From positions 1 to 64,000 of IMG/VR virus record IMGVR_UViG_3300000439_000004: DNA of 64,000 nucleotides. One strand, written 5' to 3'. The DNA is from a virus. Lineage: Duplodnaviria > Caudoviricetes. The stretch's first letter is position 1, and the number at the start of each line of letters is the position of its first letter. This document shows positions 28,334 through 53,815 of the stretch, in pieces. The notes beneath the pieces are model-generated. The model did not search any database, had not been told where the DNA came from, and was given only the letters and a program-made list of their open reading frames with translations. The position numbers and the translations under genes are program-made.

Positions 28334-28544
28334 AAGAAAATTAGCATGGGATAGTACACAAATAGTTAATGGTTTACCTAGTTTATTAGATATGAATACA
28401 AAAGAAAGTTATTCTGCTGATAAATCAGGGGTTTATAAAGACTCAAAAGGTAATATTATAGGAAGTTTTCAAGATTTAATGAACAAATAAATAGACATAA
28501 AAAAACCCATCAAAAAATGATGGGTTTTTTATTTTAGAAACAAG

Positions 28545-28944
28545 TGGATCTAACCGGAGTCGAACCGGTGTCTTCAGAACTTAACAATAAGTGACTACAC
28601 GTTTATTCAATTATTCACAATTGACAAATAGATGGTTTCATATGACTTACCAACAAACACACTTAATTTCCTTATTTTAAGGAGTTTTAAACTTTGCCAA
28701 CGTACTCCGATACGTTTCGGGTGTATCAACCCTTGATTACTTCTGTTCCTAGGTTATATGTAATTCGACCCGGTGTAGATTCACCTCTTAGGCTACTGCT
28801 ACGTTAGAAGTTGCAAGAATTCCTGCAATTTCCATGTTTTTGTAAACGTTGCCGTTTAATTGTTTAAATCAGTTTTTAAAGAGTTAACTCAGCTCTTACG
28901 TGCCACTCATCCCTAACATTCTAAATCAAAACCAAAATAGACCC
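28545..28944 (-). ncRNA. ssrA: tmRNA
   Basis: 5' GGGTCTATTTTGGTTTTGA, 3' GACACCGGTTCGACTCCGGTTAGATCCA; G3.U70 acceptor pair; tag ORF 28853-28788 GNVYKNMEIAGILATSNVAVA*. Confidence 0.92.
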
Positions 28945-28999
28945 ATATTTTAAAGAACTATTGCAAATATAAGAAGAAAATTTGAAATAAAAAAATTAT

Positions 29000-41171: not shown

Positions 41172-41855
41172 TTATTTCATCTTATTTCTTCCTTTATACC
41201 AACCTTGTGGTATTTCAGTTTCTTTCTTAATTTTCTTATTCTCAATACCATTTGTAATCCACATCGTTCCAAATTGTGAATTTAATGAACCTTTTTGATT
41301 AATTGAACTCTTTTCTCCAATTATCTTTTTTGTTTTATCATTATGTTTTTTTCCTTTAAAAGTTTTAGAACGATCAAAATTTGAATTTATTTGTCCATTT
41401 ATTATTTTTTTATTCCGTTCTTTTTTTTGGTCTTCAGTTAAATTATTATAATATTTTTTTACAATAATTGAACGAAAATCTTCACCATATTTTTCTCTTA
41501 AAATTAAATCACATTTTTTCCTACCTTTTTTTAATTGTTCTTTTGTTAAAAATCTATCACCTTGACCTCCAGTACCTCCTATTCCAAGATTCATACACAT
41601 TTTATCCTTCAATAATTCTTCATTAACTAATTCTCTTTCTTTTTTATATAATGATTCTCTATCTGAAAAATATTCAAGTATTTCACATTTAAAAATTTCT
41701 TTTCCATACTTGTTTATAGAATACCATAATCGTTTTCCAGAACCAATATAACCATCATTTAAATCATTTGTACTATGAATACCAATATAAAATTTTCCAT
41801 TAATAATATTAGTTGTTTTATAAATGTAATGATATTGTTTTTCTTTTCTTGACAT
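41172..41855 (-). CDS. GIY-YIG homing endonuclease (Seg-like)
   Basis: YIYKTTNIINGKFYIG..GYIGSG. Confidence 0.85.
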   Translation of the reverse strand: MSRKEKQYHYIYKTTNIINGKFYIGIHSTNDLNDGYIGSGKRLWYSINKYGKEIFKCEILEYFSDRESLYKKERELVNEELLKDKMCMNLGIGGTGGQGDRFLTKEQLKKGRKKCDLILREKYGEDFRSIIVKKYYNNLTEDQKKERNKKIINGQINSNFDRSKTFKGKKHNDKTKKIIGEKSSINQKGSLNSQFGTMWITNGIENKKIKKETEIPQGWYKGRNKMK

Positions 41856-41904
41856 AAATATAATTTATATATAAATATCAAAAAAAGGTACAAAAGTTCA
41901 AATG

Positions 41905-41980
41905 AGCATCGTGTCGGGCTCGAACCGACTAATTCCACCGACTTGGAAGGACGGGATGCAACCAGTTACACCTACGATGC
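41905..41980 (-). tRNA. tRNA-Gly(TCC)
   Basis: Cloverleaf; loop CT TCC AA; U73. Confidence 0.8.
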
Positions 41981-41982
41981 GT

Positions 41983-42624
41983 TTATTTTTTATATCTATA
42001 TTTTCTACCATGTCCTTTATTCAATGCACCATATGTTGGTGTTAATGAATGATGATTAGGACATAATAACATTAAATTTTCTAAAGTATTATTTTCTGAA
42101 TTACCATCAATATGTTCTAATTGAATAGGGACTTTTCCTGTAACTGGATTAATTTCGTTCCATCCACATTTCATACATTTATCCCCATATTTTTTTATTA
42201 AAAATTTTTTATATGATTTTTCAGAAAATGTTATATCACCGTTTTCAATTTTTTCAAAAATTGAATTTTGTTTATGTTCACCTTGACATTTATTAGAACA
42301 ATAATTTTTTTTTATTTTAATTTCTTTATTACAATTTAAACAATTATTTTTTTGATATTCATTTTTAAATCTAATTTTATTATTATATGTTGCCGAACAA
42401 CTATGATTACAAAAAAGTTTTTTATTACTAATTTCTTTATTACAATTTAAACAATGATTAATTTCAGTTTTTATAAAATCAGTACTTTTATATCCTAATC
42501 TATATAGTTTAGTTCTTATTGAAGATGATTCTCTTCCCAATTCAAAACTAATTTCTTTGTAAGATTTACCTTTTTTTATTAATTCAATTAAATTATCAAT
42601 TTCATTTTGTTTCCATATATTCAT
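41983..42624 (-). CDS. HNH homing endonuclease
   Basis: LEHIDGNSENNTLENLMLLCPNHH. Confidence 0.85.
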   Translation of the reverse strand: MNIWKQNEIDNLIELIKKGKSYKEISFELGRESSSIRTKLYRLGYKSTDFIKTEINHCLNCNKEISNKKLFCNHSCSATYNNKIRFKNEYQKNNCLNCNKEIKIKKNYCSNKCQGEHKQNSIFEKIENGDITFSEKSYKKFLIKKYGDKCMKCGWNEINPVTGKVPIQLEHIDGNSENNTLENLMLLCPNHHSLTPTYGALNKGHGRKYRYKK

Positions 42625-42684
42625 ATATTATAAATATAATAAAATGAGCGATAAATGTAAATTGAAAAAAAAAATAATTTAAAG

Positions 42685-42756
42685 AGCGATAAAGAAGATT
42701 CGAACTTCCATATCCGAATTGGTAATCCGGAGTAATAACCATTATACTATTATCGC
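42685..42756 (-). tRNA. tRNA-Gly(ACC)
   Basis: GCG..CGC U73 Gly body; CCGGA TT ACC AA TTCGG. Confidence 0.75.
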
Positions 42757-42819
42757 ATAGGTACCATACTTACCATTGCAATGGTTGTTGAGGTAATGGT
42801 TACCTTTATCAACATTCTG

Positions 42820-42892
42820 TAGTTCCGACCAGAATCGAACTGGTGAGTTGACCTTGTAAGGGTCACATATTAAACCGCTATATGACGGAACT
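42820..42892 (-). tRNA. tRNA-Val(TAC)
   Basis: Cloverleaf; loop CT TAC AA. Confidence 0.85.
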
Positions 42893-42964
42893 AAAGAGGG
42901 TTCGCATTTTAAGAGTGCGATACCATCACCTTCTCTGAAGGTTATTCACTATACCTACAAACAG

Positions 42965-43053
42965 TGGATACAATGGGAGTCGAACCCACACACATCCGAA
43001 TTAGACCATTCTTGCTTCGCTCGGTACTTATACCCAAATTTAGTTATATACCC
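42965..43053 (-). ncRNA. tRNA-like RNA with 19-nt anticodon loop
   Basis: Acceptor GGGTATA/TGTATCC, CCGAG-CGAAGCAAGAATGGTCTAA-TTCGG, T-loop TTCGACT. Confidence 0.6.
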
Positions 43054-43144
43054 CCTTGGACTTACCTGAACCAATTTGTCATTACCTCATGTATTGCTCG
43101 AGATGCACGAGTTAGATTCATTCAAGGGGTATATAACGATGATG

Positions 43145-43218
43145 TTGATCCTACCGGTCTCGAACCGATCACCTAATGATTATGAGTCATTTGCTCTAAC
43201 CAACTGAGCTAAGGATCA
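43145..43218 (-). tRNA. tRNA(CAT), probably Ile2
   Basis: Cloverleaf with Ile-type D arm; loop CT CAT AA. Confidence 0.8.
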
Positions 43219-43294
43219 ATATAAAACAATTACCCACTCCTCACTACGGTCACCACTACAAGTCATGCTCAGGTTGTACCAGTAGGTAATTCTT

Positions 43295-43828
43295 TTATCT
43301 TTTTAATGTGATTGTTGTGAATAAATAATCATCATTAGTTTCAATCAAAATATCTTCTTCTTTCAAACTATAAGAACAACAATCAGAACTCCATAAACAG
43401 TCAATTAAACCTCGTTTAAATTCATTCATATCTTTTACATTTAAAGGTGACAGATGTGATTGAATTGTTGGGGGATAATATTTATCATCCAACATTTTTT
43501 GATATGTTCTAAGATTATTCCATTCTTCTTTTGTTGCTTCCTTTTTTTCTTCTTCTGTTCCTCTAAAGTTCCAAACTTTATTAAACCATATATCATTTAA
43601 TCTTTTAAGTTCGTTTGTTTCTTCTTCTGAAACTTGAATAGTGTTTCTGGTTGTAATATCATCACAACTTAATGTTGGTAATGTTCTGTAAACTATATAT
43701 TCACCAACATATTGACCAAGTTGATATTCCAAAGAAAGTTCTTCAATTTGTTTTTTTCTTCTTTGTCTACCAATTTCAATTTCTTCCGGCGAACGTTTCA
43801 TAATACGTTCTAAAACACTTGATTTCAT
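43295..43828 (-). CDS. Hypothetical protein inside tRNA operon
   Basis: ORF track. Confidence 0.65.
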   Translation of the reverse strand: MKSSVLERIMKRSPEEIEIGRQRRKKQIEELSLEYQLGQYVGEYIVYRTLPTLSCDDITTRNTIQVSEEETNELKRLNDIWFNKVWNFRGTEEEKKEATKEEWNNLRTYQKMLDDKYYPPTIQSHLSPLNVKDMNEFKRGLIDCLWSSDCCSYSLKEEDILIETNDDYLFTTITLKR

Positions 43829-43857
43829 AAATAAAAAATTTAATTTTTAAAAAATTG

Positions 43858-43942
43858 TGGGACGTGATGGGGTCGAACCATCCGAGTCATTAAGACAAAC
43901 GATTTACAGTCGTTTCTGCTACCACTTACAGGATAACGTCCC
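43858..43942 (-). tRNA. tRNA-Tyr(GTA)
   Basis: Cloverleaf with variable arm. Confidence 0.85.
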
Positions 43943-44046
43943 GAATTTAGGAAAACAGAAGATGGGCGAGTGGACATCTGTTTTTATAATTGGCATTACT
44001 TATTTCACCTCCGATAGTGATACTACCTTTCCCCAATTAACCTTTG

Positions 44047-44121
44047 TACTTATAGTCGGATTCGAACCGACACTACTATGTTCCTAAGACATATGACTCC
44101 TTCCAATTGGTCTATACAAGT
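44047..44121 (-). tRNA. tRNA-Leu(TAG), short variable loop
   Basis: Loop CT TAG GA; A73. Confidence 0.8.
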
Positions 44122-44131
44122 GTATTTATTG

Positions 44132-44215
44132 TGATCAAAGAAAGACTCGAACTTTCACGTCTTTACGGACACCGGGTTTTGAATCCAGCGCGTCTACCAA
44201 TTACGCCATTTGACC
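44132..44215 (-). tRNA. tRNA-Leu(CAA)
   Basis: Leu body; loop TT CAA AA. Confidence 0.88.
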
Positions 44216-44222
44216 ATAAATG

Positions 44223-44295
44223 CTCCCACAGAGGGTCACGATCCCCCGACCTCAATCTTAACAGGATTTTGCTCTACCAACTGAGCTATGTGGGA
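44223..44295 (-). tRNA. tRNA-Asn(GTT)
   Basis: Cloverleaf; G73. Confidence 0.85.
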
Positions 44296-44323
44296 ATTTT
44301 AAAAAGGTACAAAAGTTCAAATG

Positions 44324-44414
44324 TTGGGGTGACGAGACTCGAACTCGCATTTTCGGATATTAACCTACTTTCTAGTTCCCAAAACTAGTCGTCTTCCATT
44401 GACTTCACACCCCA
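44324..44414 (-). tRNA. tRNA-Pro(TGG), long variable region
   Basis: CTAGT TT TGG GA ACTAG. Confidence 0.75.
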
Positions 44415-44425
44415 ATATAAAAATG

Positions 44426-44497
44426 TAGTCCTGAGTGGGATCGAACCACTATGTATTGTTTAGAAAACAATTATTCTATCCATTGAATTACAAGACC
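44426..44497 (-). tRNA. tRNA-Arg(TCT)
   Basis: Cloverleaf; loop TT TCT AA. Confidence 0.85.
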
Positions 44498-44614
44498 ATT
44501 TAACATACATCAATATAATCAGGAATTGTATCCATAACAATTATAAATCATGTATGTTTTTTGTGCCCTAGGCGGGGGTCGAACCCGCACCCCCATTGCT
44601 GGGGACGGGATTTT

Positions 44615-45559
44615 CTTACCACTATAATTTTCATTACCATTTTATAATGTTTGTGGTCTGGACTTTCTCTTTACCATGTCAGTTATTCCATATAATTCAC
44701 ACCATTTATGTACAGCTTTATCTGAAACATTATAATGTTTACCAACTTGAACAAATGATCCATATATTTCAAATGATTTTAATAAATCAGGAACTTTAGG
44801 TATATTTGTTCTTGAGTGTTCTCTATAACACTCAGTTGAACAATATTTACTTTCATTCCGACTAAAAATAAAATCATTATTACAATGTAAACATTTTTTT
44901 GTTTTAACTGATTTAGGTATATCGTGTAAAGTCTCTGCACCTTCTCTATTTTTAATAGAGCTTGGCTCAGGATTAACAGTTAAGTCTTCCCTGAATTTAC
45001 GATATTCTACATCTCTCTTTTCAGAAAGTGCACTCAATTTATTTTTACTACGAAAATTTGATGTCATTGAATGACAGTTAGGGCAAAGTATTTCTAAGTT
45101 TTCAATACGATTATCCATATTATTACCATTTATATGATTAAGTTCTAATTTAATAGGTTGATTTAACCAAATTGTATTTTCACATCTTTCACATTTATAT
45201 TCTTTAATATTTTCTTTAATTAATCGTTTTCTTAATGAATTAGTATTTGAATATGTAGAATTTTCTACTAAAATTTCAGATAAAGATTGTTTTTTAGAAA
45301 ATGTCTTATATCTTGTACCAGTATTCCATCCTTTTCCTGTAAAATGATTAATATTAATATTATTTTTTTTTAACATAATATTAATAGTTTTATAATTACC
45401 ACCAACAGGTCTAATACTTAATTCTCTGCAAACTTGTGCAATACTTAATGATTTACTAACTGCAATTTCTAATTCTTCTTTTGTGTATTTATGTTTCATA
45501 TATAATAAATATATCGAACTAACACAAAAGTTAATTAAATTAATCGTGTATCACTTTTT
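44615..45559 (-). mobile_element. Group I intron (IC3-like) with HNH ORF
   Basis: P AAATTCAGGGAA, Q AATCCTGAG, R GTGCAGAGACT, S AAGAGAAAGTCC, terminal G; insertion after U34. Confidence 0.88.
44642..45499 (-). CDS. Intron-encoded HNH endonuclease
   Basis: LELNHINGNNMDNRIENLEILCPNCH. Confidence 0.85.
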   Translation of the reverse strand: MKHKYTKEELEIAVSKSLSIAQVCRELSIRPVGGNYKTINIMLKKNNININHFTGKGWNTGTRYKTFSKKQSLSEILVENSTYSNTNSLRKRLIKENIKEYKCERCENTIWLNQPIKLELNHINGNNMDNRIENLEILCPNCHSMTSNFRSKNKLSALSEKRDVEYRKFREDLTVNPEPSSIKNREGAETLHDIPKSVKTKKCLHCNNDFIFSRNESKYCSTECYREHSRTNIPKVPDLLKSFEIYGSFVQVGKHYNVSDKAVHKWCELYGITDMVKRKSRPQTL

Positions 45560-45657
45560 AAGTCCCGCGTGTCTACCTAGTTTCACCACCAGGGCAACTT
45601 ATTCCACAATGTCAAAGAAATTTAATTTTTATTTTTTCTTATGATATTTATATACAT

Positions 45658-46347
45658 ATGAAACATACATATACACCAGAAGAATATAATAACTCAACAC
45701 CAGAAACCGACATTCCACTTATTTGTGTTGGTTGTGATCATATATTCTATGTAAAAAAGAAAACCATAGAAAATAATAAATGGGGTCATAGAACATTTGA
45801 TTTTTGTAATTCCGAATGTCGCAGAGAACATAGAAAAAAAAATATTATGATAACCACCAATTGTACTAATTGTAATACTGTTATAACAAAACTATATTCA
45901 GCAAGTAAACGACATAAAAATACATTTTGTAGTCATTCATGTTCTACGATATATTTAAATTCACATAAAACATTTGGTTATAAACGTTCTAAATTGGAAA
46001 TTTGGATAGAAGAACAATTAACACAAATTTATCCAGAACTGTTAATTAACTATAATAAAAAAGATATTATTAATTCAGAATTAGATATTTATATACCATC
46101 TCTTTCACTAGCATTTGAATTAAACGGTATCTTTCATTATGAACCTGTTTTTAGTAATGAAAGATTAATATCAACACAAATTAACGATTCTTTAAAATTT
46201 AAAAAATGTATTGAAAATAACATATCATTATGTGTTATTGATACATCACAACAAAAATATGTTAAACCATCCACAAGTCAAAAATATTTAGATATTATAA
46301 CTAAAATAATTAATGAAAATTTAATATTAAAAAACAATATTAACTAA
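45658..46347 (+). CDS. Putative PD-(D/E)xK/Vsr-like homing endonuclease with Zn fingers
   Basis: RSKLE..ELDIYIPSLSLAFELNGIFHY. Confidence 0.7.
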   Translation: MKHTYTPEEYNNSTPETDIPLICVGCDHIFYVKKKTIENNKWGHRTFDFCNSECRREHRKKNIMITTNCTNCNTVITKLYSASKRHKNTFCSHSCSTIYLNSHKTFGYKRSKLEIWIEEQLTQIYPELLINYNKKDIINSELDIYIPSLSLAFELNGIFHYEPVFSNERLISTQINDSLKFKKCIENNISLCVIDTSQQKYVKPSTSQKYLDIITKIINENLILKNNIN

Positions 46348-46375
46348 TTATACAACAATGTAAAAGAACTAAAAC

Positions 46376-46415
46376 AAAAAACCCGAACTTATTTTTTTAT
46401 TAGTAAGTTCGGGTT
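46376..46415 (-). terminator. Attenuator terminator of left tRNA operon
   Basis: AACCCGAACTTA...TAAGTTCGGGTT-TTTT. Confidence 0.85.
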
Positions 46416-46439
46416 ATATTTTTTAGAAATTAATCTATT

Positions 46440-46541
46440 TTATATTTTATATTCCGAACATACTATACTTTGCACATTTCCTCTATTGCCGTTATATAAC
46501 GGGTTAGGGTTAAGTGTTAGTATGTTCGTCAATAATTTCAT
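46440..46541 (-). CDS. Leader peptide of left tRNA operon (33 aa)
   Basis: MKLLTNILTLNPNPLYNGNRGNVQSIVCSEYKI*, between promoter TATATTTG (46560-46567) and terminator. Confidence 0.8.
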   Translation of the reverse strand: MKLLTNILTLNPNPLYNGNRGNVQSIVCSEYKI

Positions 46542-46827
46542 CTTACTAATAATTATATGCAAATATACGAAAAGTTTTTCAAACTACAAAATATTTTTAT
46601 TTTTTTTTTATTATACTTTGTTTTCGTACTTTGATGAGGCAAATATAAGTGAAATATTTGGAATAATAAAATGTTTTTTAAAATATTTATTTATAAATGA
46701 AAATAATCAGAAAGATATTATGTTTTGTAGGTTTTCATCGTTATATTGATTGTGATGAATGTGATCTAAAAAACAAAGTATCAATTATGGTTAAATGTGA
46801 GATTTGTGGGAAAATTAGTGGTAATGG

Positions 46828-51009: not shown

Positions 51010-51082
51010 TTGCTACGTCTGGGAATCGAACCCAGTTATTTTGGCTTATGAGACCAACGAAATACCTTACCTCCCACCAGCT
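51010..51082 (-). tRNA. tRNA(CAT), Met-type, irregular acceptor
   Basis: TTGGT CT CAT AA GCCAA; good T arm. Confidence 0.65.
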
Positions 51083-52370: not shown

Positions 52371-52455
52371 ATTTTTATCCATATTTCAAAGAACATATAT
52401 CGTTTCCGATTGTTCAGCAAAGATAATAATATTTTTGATTCTACCAAATTTATTT

Positions 52456-53223: not shown

Positions 53224-53278
53224 ATTTATAAATATTAATAAAATGGAAAAAAGTAAAGACGAATTAAAAACAATTTAG

Positions 53279-53355
53279 TGGAAGTTACGGTGAACGATAC
53301 CGTCTGATTTCCGCATTGCAAGTGCGGTGACCACACCAATGCAGTCCCAACCCCC
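53279..53355 (-). tRNA. tRNA-Ala(TGC)
   Basis: G3.U70; CCGCA CT TGC AA TGCGG. Confidence 0.8.
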
Positions 53356-53435
53356 ATTTAATTCCCCATATTTCAAAGATCAGATGCTCATCCACTAGAG
53401 CTTCACCCCCATTTTTTTTAAAGAACTATATAAAC

Positions 53436-53467
53436 AAAAAAACCTCGGAAGGTTATTCCGAGGTTTT
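53436..53467 (-). terminator. Attenuator terminator of right tRNA operon
   Basis: AAAACCTCGGAA-TAACC-TTCCGAGGTTTTTTT. Confidence 0.85.
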
Positions 53468-53491
53468 CACTTATAATGTTAAAATTAAAAT

Positions 53492-53593
53492 TTAACTTAA
53501 ATCAGTATCAACAACTCGGAACATAATAATATCACGCTCATCCGCCCATTTTGAACAGATTGTAAACGACATCGTATGTTTGAATTGTTTCAT
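53492..53593 (-). CDS. Leader peptide of right tRNA operon (33 aa)
   Basis: MKQFKHTMSFTICSKWADERDIIMFRVVDTDLS*, between promoter TATATTTG (53656-53663) and terminator. Confidence 0.8.
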   Translation of the reverse strand: MKQFKHTMSFTICSKWADERDIIMFRVVDTDLS

Positions 53594-53815
53594 TGAAATT
53601 CTTTTATTTTTTTTACTTTATAATACCTCAGATACTATTTTCTCCGATTGTATTGCAAATATAGATATAAATATTGGAATAAACAAGAAAAGTTCAAAGT
53701 TTTTTAAAAATATTTTTTTTTATTTTATTTTTCCATATTTTTTTAAGATGTTTATATTGTGAAATTAAAAGATTAATAATTCAATCTTTTCTGAATTTTT
53801 AATATATTTATTAAT

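Follow-up and report, generated by a model that had tools for sequence, protein, structure and literature searches.

The element described here is a short leader on the minus strand of a 64-kb window (the whole stretch of DNA analyzed, taken from IMG/VR record IMGVR_UViG_3300000439_000004), which belongs to a phage genome of 162 kb and 27.6% GC. The leader heads the left tRNA array of the window, and we regard it, at a probability of about 0.8, as a ribosome-mediated (leader-peptide) transcription attenuator that gates this array. The unit opens with a Bacteroidota-type promoter, TTTG-N19-TATATTTG (46560-46590), in which the -33 element TTTG (46590-46587) is separated by a 19-nt spacer from the -7 box TATATTTG (46567-46560). 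Copies of the motif number 23 in the window, compared with 3.8 +/- 1.6 in shuffles; 21 of the 23 are on the minus strand, and the -7 box of the leader promoter is kept in relatives. Nineteen nucleotides separate this box from the ATG (46541) of a 33-codon open reading frame (ORF; 46440-46541; MKLLTNILTLNPNPLYNGNRGNVQSIVCSEYKI), which ends at TAA (46442-46440).

Four segments of the leader transcript can form three alternative helices. Region 1, the protector (CGAACATACTA, 46518-46528, codons 5-8), pairs perfectly over 11 bp with 46465-46455 of region 2 (TAGTATGTTCGG, 46454-46465). Region 2 alternatively pairs, at 11 of 12 positions, with CCGAACTTACTA (46412-46401) of region 3 (CCCGAACTTACTA, 46401-46413), forming the antiterminator. 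Region 3 is also the 5' arm of an intrinsic terminator, CCCGAACTTA/TAAGTTCGGG followed by U6, whose 3' arm and T run constitute region 4 (TAAGTTCGGG, 46375-46391); its stem is 10-12 bp long, with 10 of 10 counted positions paired. The stop codon of the ORF lies 11 nt beyond region 2 and about 25 nt short of region 3. Within the 1:2 loop, an internal hairpin, CCGTT-ATAT-AACGG (46489-46502), is part of the minimum free energy (MFE) fold, shows compensatory changes at two of its five pairs in relatives, and may serve as an RNA polymerase pause hairpin. The promoter, ORF, and terminator, the perfect 1:2 match, and the 11/12 alternative match were all proposed in an initial annotation made from the sequence, and each was found as it had been described. 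With one mismatch allowed, the 11-mer shared by regions 1, 2, and 3 occurs only at these three sites in the whole 162-kb genome; the motif is thus unique to the leader locus, which rules out that the three segments are copies of a dispersed repeat.

The initial annotation further placed a boxA and then the tRNA operon after the terminator. The terminator and a boxA-like box are indeed present, but the tRNAs do not follow directly: in the window, the terminator is separated from the first tRNA by a plus-strand homing-endonuclease gene (45658-46347, 229 aa; phrog_559 and phrog_3339, HNH/homing endonuclease), which is convergent with the leader and is itself ended by the leader terminator, the latter being bidirectional. 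The first copy of the box, GTTCTTTTACATTGTTG (46353-46369, minus strand), adjoins the terminator and carries a G to T change relative to the family consensus GTTCTTTGACA, which we take to be close to known boxA consensus sequences. A second, intact copy, TTTCTTTGACATTGTGG (45604-45620, minus strand), lies directly upstream of tRNA-Leu(UAA). The endonuclease gene is absent from a close relative, L012 (L numbers denote stretches of IMG/VR contigs unless stated otherwise), in which a box nearly identical to the second copy lies between the terminator and tRNA-Leu. The L012 leader is 93.6% identical to the window leader over 342 nt, and its ORF differs by one synonymous and two C-terminal changes. 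Its tRNA-Leu(UAA) begins 32 nt past the terminator and is followed by Arg, Pro, Asn, Leu, Leu, Tyr, and more tRNAs. Because L012 is uninterrupted, the arrangement in the window is explained by an endonuclease insertion into a compact promoter-leader-terminator-boxA-tRNA unit. The inserted gene has a copy of TTCTTTKACATTGTKG, the boxA-like box, on each side (45604-46369), as though the insertion had occurred in or next to boxA and the flank had been duplicated.

The left array, also on the minus strand, starts with tRNA-Leu(UAA) (44563-45595; exons 45595-45560 and 44614-44563), with a 945-nt intron in its anticodon loop; the intron contains a 285-aa HNH ORF (44642-45499) and has no Rfam group I intron match at the gathering score. 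The L012 counterpart is intron-free. The remainder of the array (40676-44497) comprises Arg(TCT), Pro(TGG), Asn(GTT), Leu(CAA), Leu(TAG), Tyr(GTA), a CAT tRNA (putatively Ile2, as in the initial annotation), Val(TAC), Gly(ACC), Gly(TCC), Thr(TGT), Gln(TTG), and Ser(GCT), with homing-endonuclease genes scattered among them. It should be noted that ARAGORN at default settings misses Leu(UAA) and Gly(TCC), which are called only with intron search and a lowered threshold.

The leader belongs to a family. About 50 distinct homologous leaders were obtained from IMG/VR contigs, all with same-strand tRNA arrays downstream. Nineteen loci (12 distinct sequences), fetched through a protein encoded at the far end of the array and thus by a retrieval blind to the leader, carry a homologous element directly preceding Leu(UAA) or, in two lineages, Pro. 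A scan of IMG/VR by the terminator motif alone, which demanded neither region 2 nor an ORF, returned 116 stretches (88 unique), most of them followed by tRNA arrays; these tRNAs are always on the same strand and usually lie past a boxA-like GTTCTTTGACA. The core of region 2, GTTCGG, is found within 70 nt upstream of the terminator at 49 of the 88 sites, mostly at 28-60 nt, and 72-82 nt upstream at four others; with one exception, an ATG-initiated ORF of 22-39 codons spans GTTCGG at these sites. The gap between the terminator and the first tRNA is only 20-140 nt long in L012 and most relatives, and it holds a boxA-like box and no promoter motif.

The first line of evidence for attenuation is the maintenance of the leader ORF, the loss of which the initial annotation had named as an outcome that would speak against its proposal. 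The frame set by the ATG is open as far as region 2 in all 50 distinct leaders, while the other two frames contain 148 and 139 stops, and shuffled leaders stay open with a mean probability of 0.13. Distances from the ATG to region 2 cluster in 3-nt steps (82/85/88 and 76/79). The leader stop codon is placed 22-32 nt before the terminator in 48 of the 50 leaders and 3-18 nt after region 2 in 38. The GTTCGG core is invariant in relatives though it occurs in all three reading frames, and the constraint therefore acts on the RNA, not on the peptide. Within the peptide, the conserved part is NGNGYGVQP; between array classes, leader peptides are wholly different, with the RNA architecture kept.

The second line of evidence concerns the helices. 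The initial annotation interpreted them by the 1:2/2:3/3:4 logic of mutually exclusive pairings, and this logic is supported by covariation of helix 1:2 and by the way in which region 2 tracks region 3 in leaders of the right-array type. The free leader transcript folds as 1:2 plus 3:4 at -41.9 kcal/mol (z = -5.4 versus shuffles), and the individual duplex energies in the window are -15.8 (1:2), -15.0 (2:3), and -17.9 kcal/mol (3:4). A nascent transcript that lacks region 4 and bears a ribosome on codon 8 folds as 2:3. In single-sequence MFE folds, the zone of region 2 pairs with the start of the ORF in 39 of 41 cases and the terminator forms in all 41. Across relatives, region 1 pairs with its own region 2 at a mean of -11.9 kcal/mol, versus -7.95 kcal/mol when partners are swapped. 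Helix 1:2, specified on an alignment of 25 sequences, is 78% paired, and 6 of its 14 pairs change on both sides (e.g., UA 12/AU 9 and AU 11/GC 8); the register of 1:2 is shifted by 9 nt in the window, L012, and L152. The covariation score of the whole specified structure (1:2, internal hairpin, and terminator) is 0.149, compared with 0.086 +/- 0.008 in shuffles, none of 500 reaching it, and slid controls score 0.06 or less.

Analogously, region 2 covaries with region 3 in leaders related to a second leader of the window, which heads the right tRNA array. These right-array leaders possess four terminator stem types (CCTCGGAA, CCCTGAGA, CCTCGGGA, and CCCCGGGA), each with its matching region 2 (GTTCCGAG; GTCTCAG or GTCTCGG; GTCTCGA or TCCCGAGG; and TCCCG, respectively). 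Duplexes of region 2 with region 3 average -12.1 kcal/mol within a type and -8.3 kcal/mol across types, and the true assignment of region 2 to stem is the best of the 24 type permutations. These comparisons are based on duplex energies and not on pair counts, the MAFFT alignment of right-array leaders placing region 2 in different registers.

One more complementarity was seen in the leader. The 11 nt adjoining the ATG on its upstream side (TTATTAGTAAG, 46542-46552, minus strand) are the perfect complement of CTTACTAATAA (46397-46407, minus strand), a segment that runs from the 3' part of region 3 into the terminator loop. This complementarity is present only in the window and in L012, whose terminator loop has an extra TTACTAAT; it is possibly a fourth pairing option, which could hide the ribosome-loading site of the leader.

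The third line of evidence is the correspondence between leader codons and array tRNAs. Codons 3-27 had been said to match the tRNAs of the operon, and all 25 are decodable by left-array tRNAs (genome background 0.543; P about 2e-7). Conversely, all 14 left-array anticodons are sampled; in this genome, the leader is a sampler that contains at least one codon for each tRNA encoded downstream. The match clearly exceeds that of random codon content, the comparison by which the initial annotation proposed to judge it: among 319 small ORFs of the genome, the leader alone reaches at least 22 decodable codons, and the level of 25/25 is attained by 13 of 38,434 25-codon windows in long ORFs and by no other small ORF.

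The suggested covariation of leader codons with array content is evident in relatives. Of the 718 codons that precede region 2 in the 28 leaders followed by at least 8 tRNAs, 574 (80%) can be read by tRNAs of the same leader's array, versus 45% expected; from region 2 onward the proportion is 62 of 183 (34%). The decodable share is 83% as far as the fifth codon before region 2 and 61% over the final four, a drop that a ribosome footprint would predict. Leaders sample 284 of the 291 anticodons in their arrays (98%; 183 expected), and when arrays were permuted among 14 peptide clusters, none of 200,000 permutations reached the observed match. The correspondence is specific to the array class. 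Leaders of Leu(UAA)-led arrays (MKNLNNILGITSRPLNNGNGYLVQP...) use N, L, T, P, Y, G, V, Q, AGA, ATA, and AGT codons; those of Phe-led arrays (MKLVNKQIVKHVIQFCQNWYIRLF...) use K, H, F, C, W, CGY, ATY, and CTY codons, and in one of them (L074) the amino-acid set of the leader equals the 12 tRNA species of the compact first block of the array. Lys/Trp arrays have a leader with ...FKHTSFSKSFKWFSHKF..., and Gly(TCC)-led arrays one with ...NGCDWQQEP..., matching Gly, Trp, Cys, Gln, Glu, and Asp tRNAs. The match extends to isoacceptors: AGA goes with Arg(TCT) and CGY with Arg(ACG), ATA with CAT or TAT anticodons and ATY with Ile(GAT), TTR with Leu(TAA) and CTY with Leu(TAG), and the choice between AGY and TCN codons for Ser likewise follows the array.

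The second leader of the window (53438-53662, minus strand) provides an internal control. It has an ATG at 53593, the peptide MKQFKHTMSFTICSKWADERDIIMFRVVDTDLS, a stop codon at 53494-53492, and a region 2, TTCCGAG (53521-53515), that is a copy of the 3' arm of its terminator; this terminator (CCTCGGAA/TTCCGAGG) differs from the left one and is followed by a boxA-like box. By the left tRNA set, 25 of 26 codons of the left leader and 5 of 23 of the right leader are decodable. The right leader scores 12 of 23 on the right-array tRNAs called by ARAGORN; adding the Ala, Ile(GAT), Lys, Asp, and Glu tRNAs of relatives' right arrays raises this to 22 of 23. Its homologues sample their own arrays' Ala, Ile, Phe, Lys, Trp, Arg(ACG), Cys, His, Met, Asp, Ser(TGA), and Glu tRNAs. 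Since the two leaders of one genome have complementary codon sets, general codon usage is excluded as the cause of the match.

These features suggest the following mechanism. The host-type promoter would start a transcript whose first 100 nt encode the 33-codon peptide. If no ribosome loads, 1:2 would pair, the 3:4 terminator would form, and transcription would stop; if a ribosome translates smoothly to the stop codon, it would cover region 2, again permitting the terminator. If a sampled tRNA is scarce, the ribosome would linger between about codon 3 and about five codons before region 2, keeping region 1 off region 2, so that 2:3 could form before region 4 is made and the polymerase would read through. 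On its way to the tRNAs, which it would then transcribe, the polymerase would cross the boxA-like box and there probably acquire an rrn-type antitermination complex. The new tRNAs would speed decoding of the leader and shut the switch, amounting to feedback control of tRNA supply. Leader translation would thus control read-through, the natural signal would be tRNA depletion, by starvation or by anticodon nucleases, and the phage probably makes the tRNA block only when ribosomes read the sampled codons slowly.

Several points weigh against this interpretation. The evidence for the switch comes from sequence comparison and computed folds. The folding alternatives that the initial annotation proposed to examine were recovered in part: 1:2 and 3:4 appear in the free transcript and 2:3 in the nascent one, but 2:3 never replaces the terminator at equilibrium, the full transcript retaining the terminator at every position of a masking ribosome. 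The antiterminator must therefore act kinetically, as it does in classical attenuators. RNAalifold, applied to the leader alignment, predicts only the terminator and not 1:2, and the support for helix 1:2 comes from pairs that we specified and from energy controls. Helix 2:3 is reduced to a 6-bp core in most relatives of the Leu class, where no covariation is visible because the core never varies; the right-array leaders, in which region 2 tracks region 3 across four stem types, support the 2:3 pairing where the Leu class is silent. Leaders of the Leu class share descent, and the number of independent comparisons of codons with arrays is accordingly about 5-6 array classes rather than 50. Arrays were defined as all same-strand tRNAs within 4 kb, and the decodable fractions follow liberal wobble rules, applied to the background as well.

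Two further adverse points are particular to this genome: the convergent gene, about 690 nt long, stands between the switch and the array, and a promoter-like match at 46282-46252 could bypass the switch. They lend some weight to the view that the left switch of this genome is a relic, uncoupled from its array by the homing-endonuclease insertion. About 780 nt, including the convergent gene, now separate the terminator from tRNA-Leu, and the box copy with the G to T change is the one next to the terminator. We consider this view unlikely, though it deserves to be taken seriously. The switch in this genome is intact despite the insertion: the leader, its helices, and its codon set are preserved, at high identity to the uninterrupted L012, an intact box directly precedes tRNA-Leu, no consensus promoter is found in 45596-45657, and the terminator, acting in both directions, screens the leader from the convergent gene.

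A different alternative accepts the RNA switch and assigns it another natural signal, namely amino-acid starvation, sensed as tRNA charging and not as tRNA amount. Stalling cannot distinguish a missing from an uncharged tRNA, as is established for the trp and his attenuators, and the anatomy of the leader would be identical in both cases. However, the output of the switch, tRNA, does not relieve amino-acid starvation. Moreover, the match holds at the level of isoacceptors (Arg AGA/CGY, Ile ATA/ATY, Leu TTR/CTY, and Ser AGY/TCN) and not of the amino acid only, and 98% of array anticodons are sampled. Such a signal is, in our opinion, improbable. Still less probable is a sensor of translational capacity or coupling in general, in which any translation of the leader would set read-through and codon content would be meaningless. 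A stable-RNA operon stopped by 1:2 and 3:4 whenever translation fails would be sensible by itself, but the codon sets are array-class-specific and complementary between the two leaders of one genome, and the match is restricted to those codons at which a stalled ribosome would leave region 2 free. Finally, a separate gene for a small protein or small RNA that ends in an ordinary terminator, with the array transcribed from elsewhere or by leaky read-through, would suit the short promoter-to-terminator unit (only about 180 nt), the conserved peptide part, and the convergent gene after the terminator, but is hardly credible given the short, boxA-bearing, promoterless gap before the tRNAs in L012 and most relatives, the complete change of peptide between array classes under a constant RNA architecture, the conservation of GTTCGG in three reading frames, and a protein search in which the 40-aa TTG-extended leader peptide found no called homologous protein.

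Leader-peptide attenuators are known for amino-acid operons, such as those of trpL, hisL, leuL, and pheL in E. coli and Salmonella. The phage leader resembles them in its promoter-proximal short ORF, its 1:2/2:3/3:4 helices, its terminator before the regulated genes, and a stop codon placed such that a terminating ribosome covers region 2. It differs in that tRNAs rather than biosynthetic enzymes are regulated, in that its ORF, rather than repeating a single codon, gives each of 10-15 tRNA species one codon or a few, and in its setting, phage contigs with Bacteroidota-type promoters; moreover, its output would feed back directly on decoding speed. Multivalent attenuators also exist, the ilvGMEDA leader responding to Ile, Leu, and Val and the thr leader to Thr and Ile. 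There, too, one leader senses several amino acids or tRNAs; however, these are two or three related amino acids, as opposed to 8-15 unrelated tRNA species here, where the codons sampled are those of the operon's own tRNA genes (284/291 anticodons). In the pheST attenuator of E. coli, the pheM leader senses one codon type and the target is an aminoacyl-tRNA synthetase. The phage leader similarly would place translation-apparatus genes under leader-peptide attenuation, the targets being the tRNAs themselves. T-box riboswitches are likewise transcription attenuators that report tRNA status, but they bind uncharged tRNA directly and work without translation, whereas the ORF is conserved here; an Rfam cmscan of the whole window at gathering thresholds returned only tRNAs and a transfer-messenger RNA (tmRNA) and no T-box.

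Antitermination by rrn-type boxA involves NusB/NusE in the E. coli system (PMC4807359). As in rrn operons, the boxA-like GTTCTTTGACA directly precedes stable-RNA genes, including the tmRNA and tRNA-Phe of the window. Unlike in rrn operons, the putative box lies downstream of a regulated terminator, and antitermination would load only past the switch.

The regulation of the tRNA gene sets of phages, often large, is largely unknown, and the reasons for carrying them are debated: matching of codon usage, replacement of a degraded host pool, and escape from tRNA-targeting defences have been considered. A full-text literature search found no published description of leader-peptide attenuation of phage tRNA genes. 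If our interpretation is true, tRNA supply would be monitored and held steady separately for each tRNA set through the decoding speed of its own codons. A leader would then reveal which tRNAs matter to the phage and when, making the question testable. Textbook attenuation would be extended in three ways: to stable-RNA genes, to a sensor with 10-15 inputs, and to Bacteroidota-type hosts. Leaders of this kind could also be used as small, naturally occurring reporters of how available particular tRNAs are.

More tentatively, and with odds that we place well below even, each array might be an inducible counter-measure whose leader watches the pools of exactly those tRNAs that the array can replace. 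Depletion of one sampled tRNA by the host, through an anticodon nuclease, another tRNA-targeting defence, or shut-off, would turn the array on, and restoration of the pool would turn it off; several arrays with their own leaders would act as separate alarms for separate tRNA sets.

Not all sites recovered with the terminator motif conform to the pattern described above. L053, L055, L063, L076, L083, L113, L126, and others share the terminator and have no exact GTTCGG upstream. In this class, the ORF MKTTNKHMNICNPSIQWSFNVYRTLKSHIRAFSFMS samples about 15 amino acids, tRNA-Thr(TGT) lies 15 nt past the terminator with a boxA-like box after that tRNA, and an R3-like (region 3-like) ACCCGAGC sits inside the ORF; the geometry of the switch appears different. 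Other searches were less productive. A gapped pattern of region 2 plus CCGAAC gave mostly chance matches in coding DNA, only L012 being real. Relatives of the upstream 195-aa protein (L001-L011) had neither synteny nor the leader. Among GenBank phages there was no leader relative and no cultured member, only generic tRNA matches. Region 2 plus terminator had 18 hits in 185,579 prokaryote species genomes, none of them followed by tRNAs. Conserved bacterial leaders were seen in Paraburkholderia/Burkholderia (L181, L184, L185, L189, and L194-L196) and in Verrucomicrobiota metagenome-assembled genomes (L190 and L192); they carry GTTCGGCAAC... upstream of a ACCCGAAC/GTTCGGG terminator, region 2 copies region 4, and no tRNAs lie downstream. 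They are probably unrelated attenuators of another operon. A scan with the terminator stem of the right leader returned 17 stretches, nearly all unrelated terminators, L168 being the only true relative.

Around the right leader, tRNA-Phe has its own promoter motif (52448-52418), and a 255-aa endonuclease-like ORF lies between this tRNA and the leader. Four tRNA-like sequences on the minus strand (53275-53350, 42965-43053, 36268-36339, and 51011-51081) are uncalled or oddly called by ARAGORN; they include an Ala(TGC)-like sequence past the right terminator, an 89-nt tRNA-like RNA with an enlarged anticodon loop, and two hits made by Rfam only. Such sequences may read those codons of the right leader (Ala, Lys, Asp, Glu, and Ile) that have no called tRNA.

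The boxA-like pattern GWTCTTTRAMA occurs 7 times in the window versus 1.4 expected. Minus-strand copies at 28948-28958, 36575-36585, 52384-52394, 53371-53381, and 53416-53426 directly precede the tmRNA (28544-28944, minus strand), tRNA-Phe, and other stable-RNA genes. The window also encodes, on the minus strand, a Gly tRNA with anticodon ACC (A34; 42684-42756) and a stand-alone CTA (amber-reading) tRNA (35257-35328) with its own promoter motif (35370-35339).

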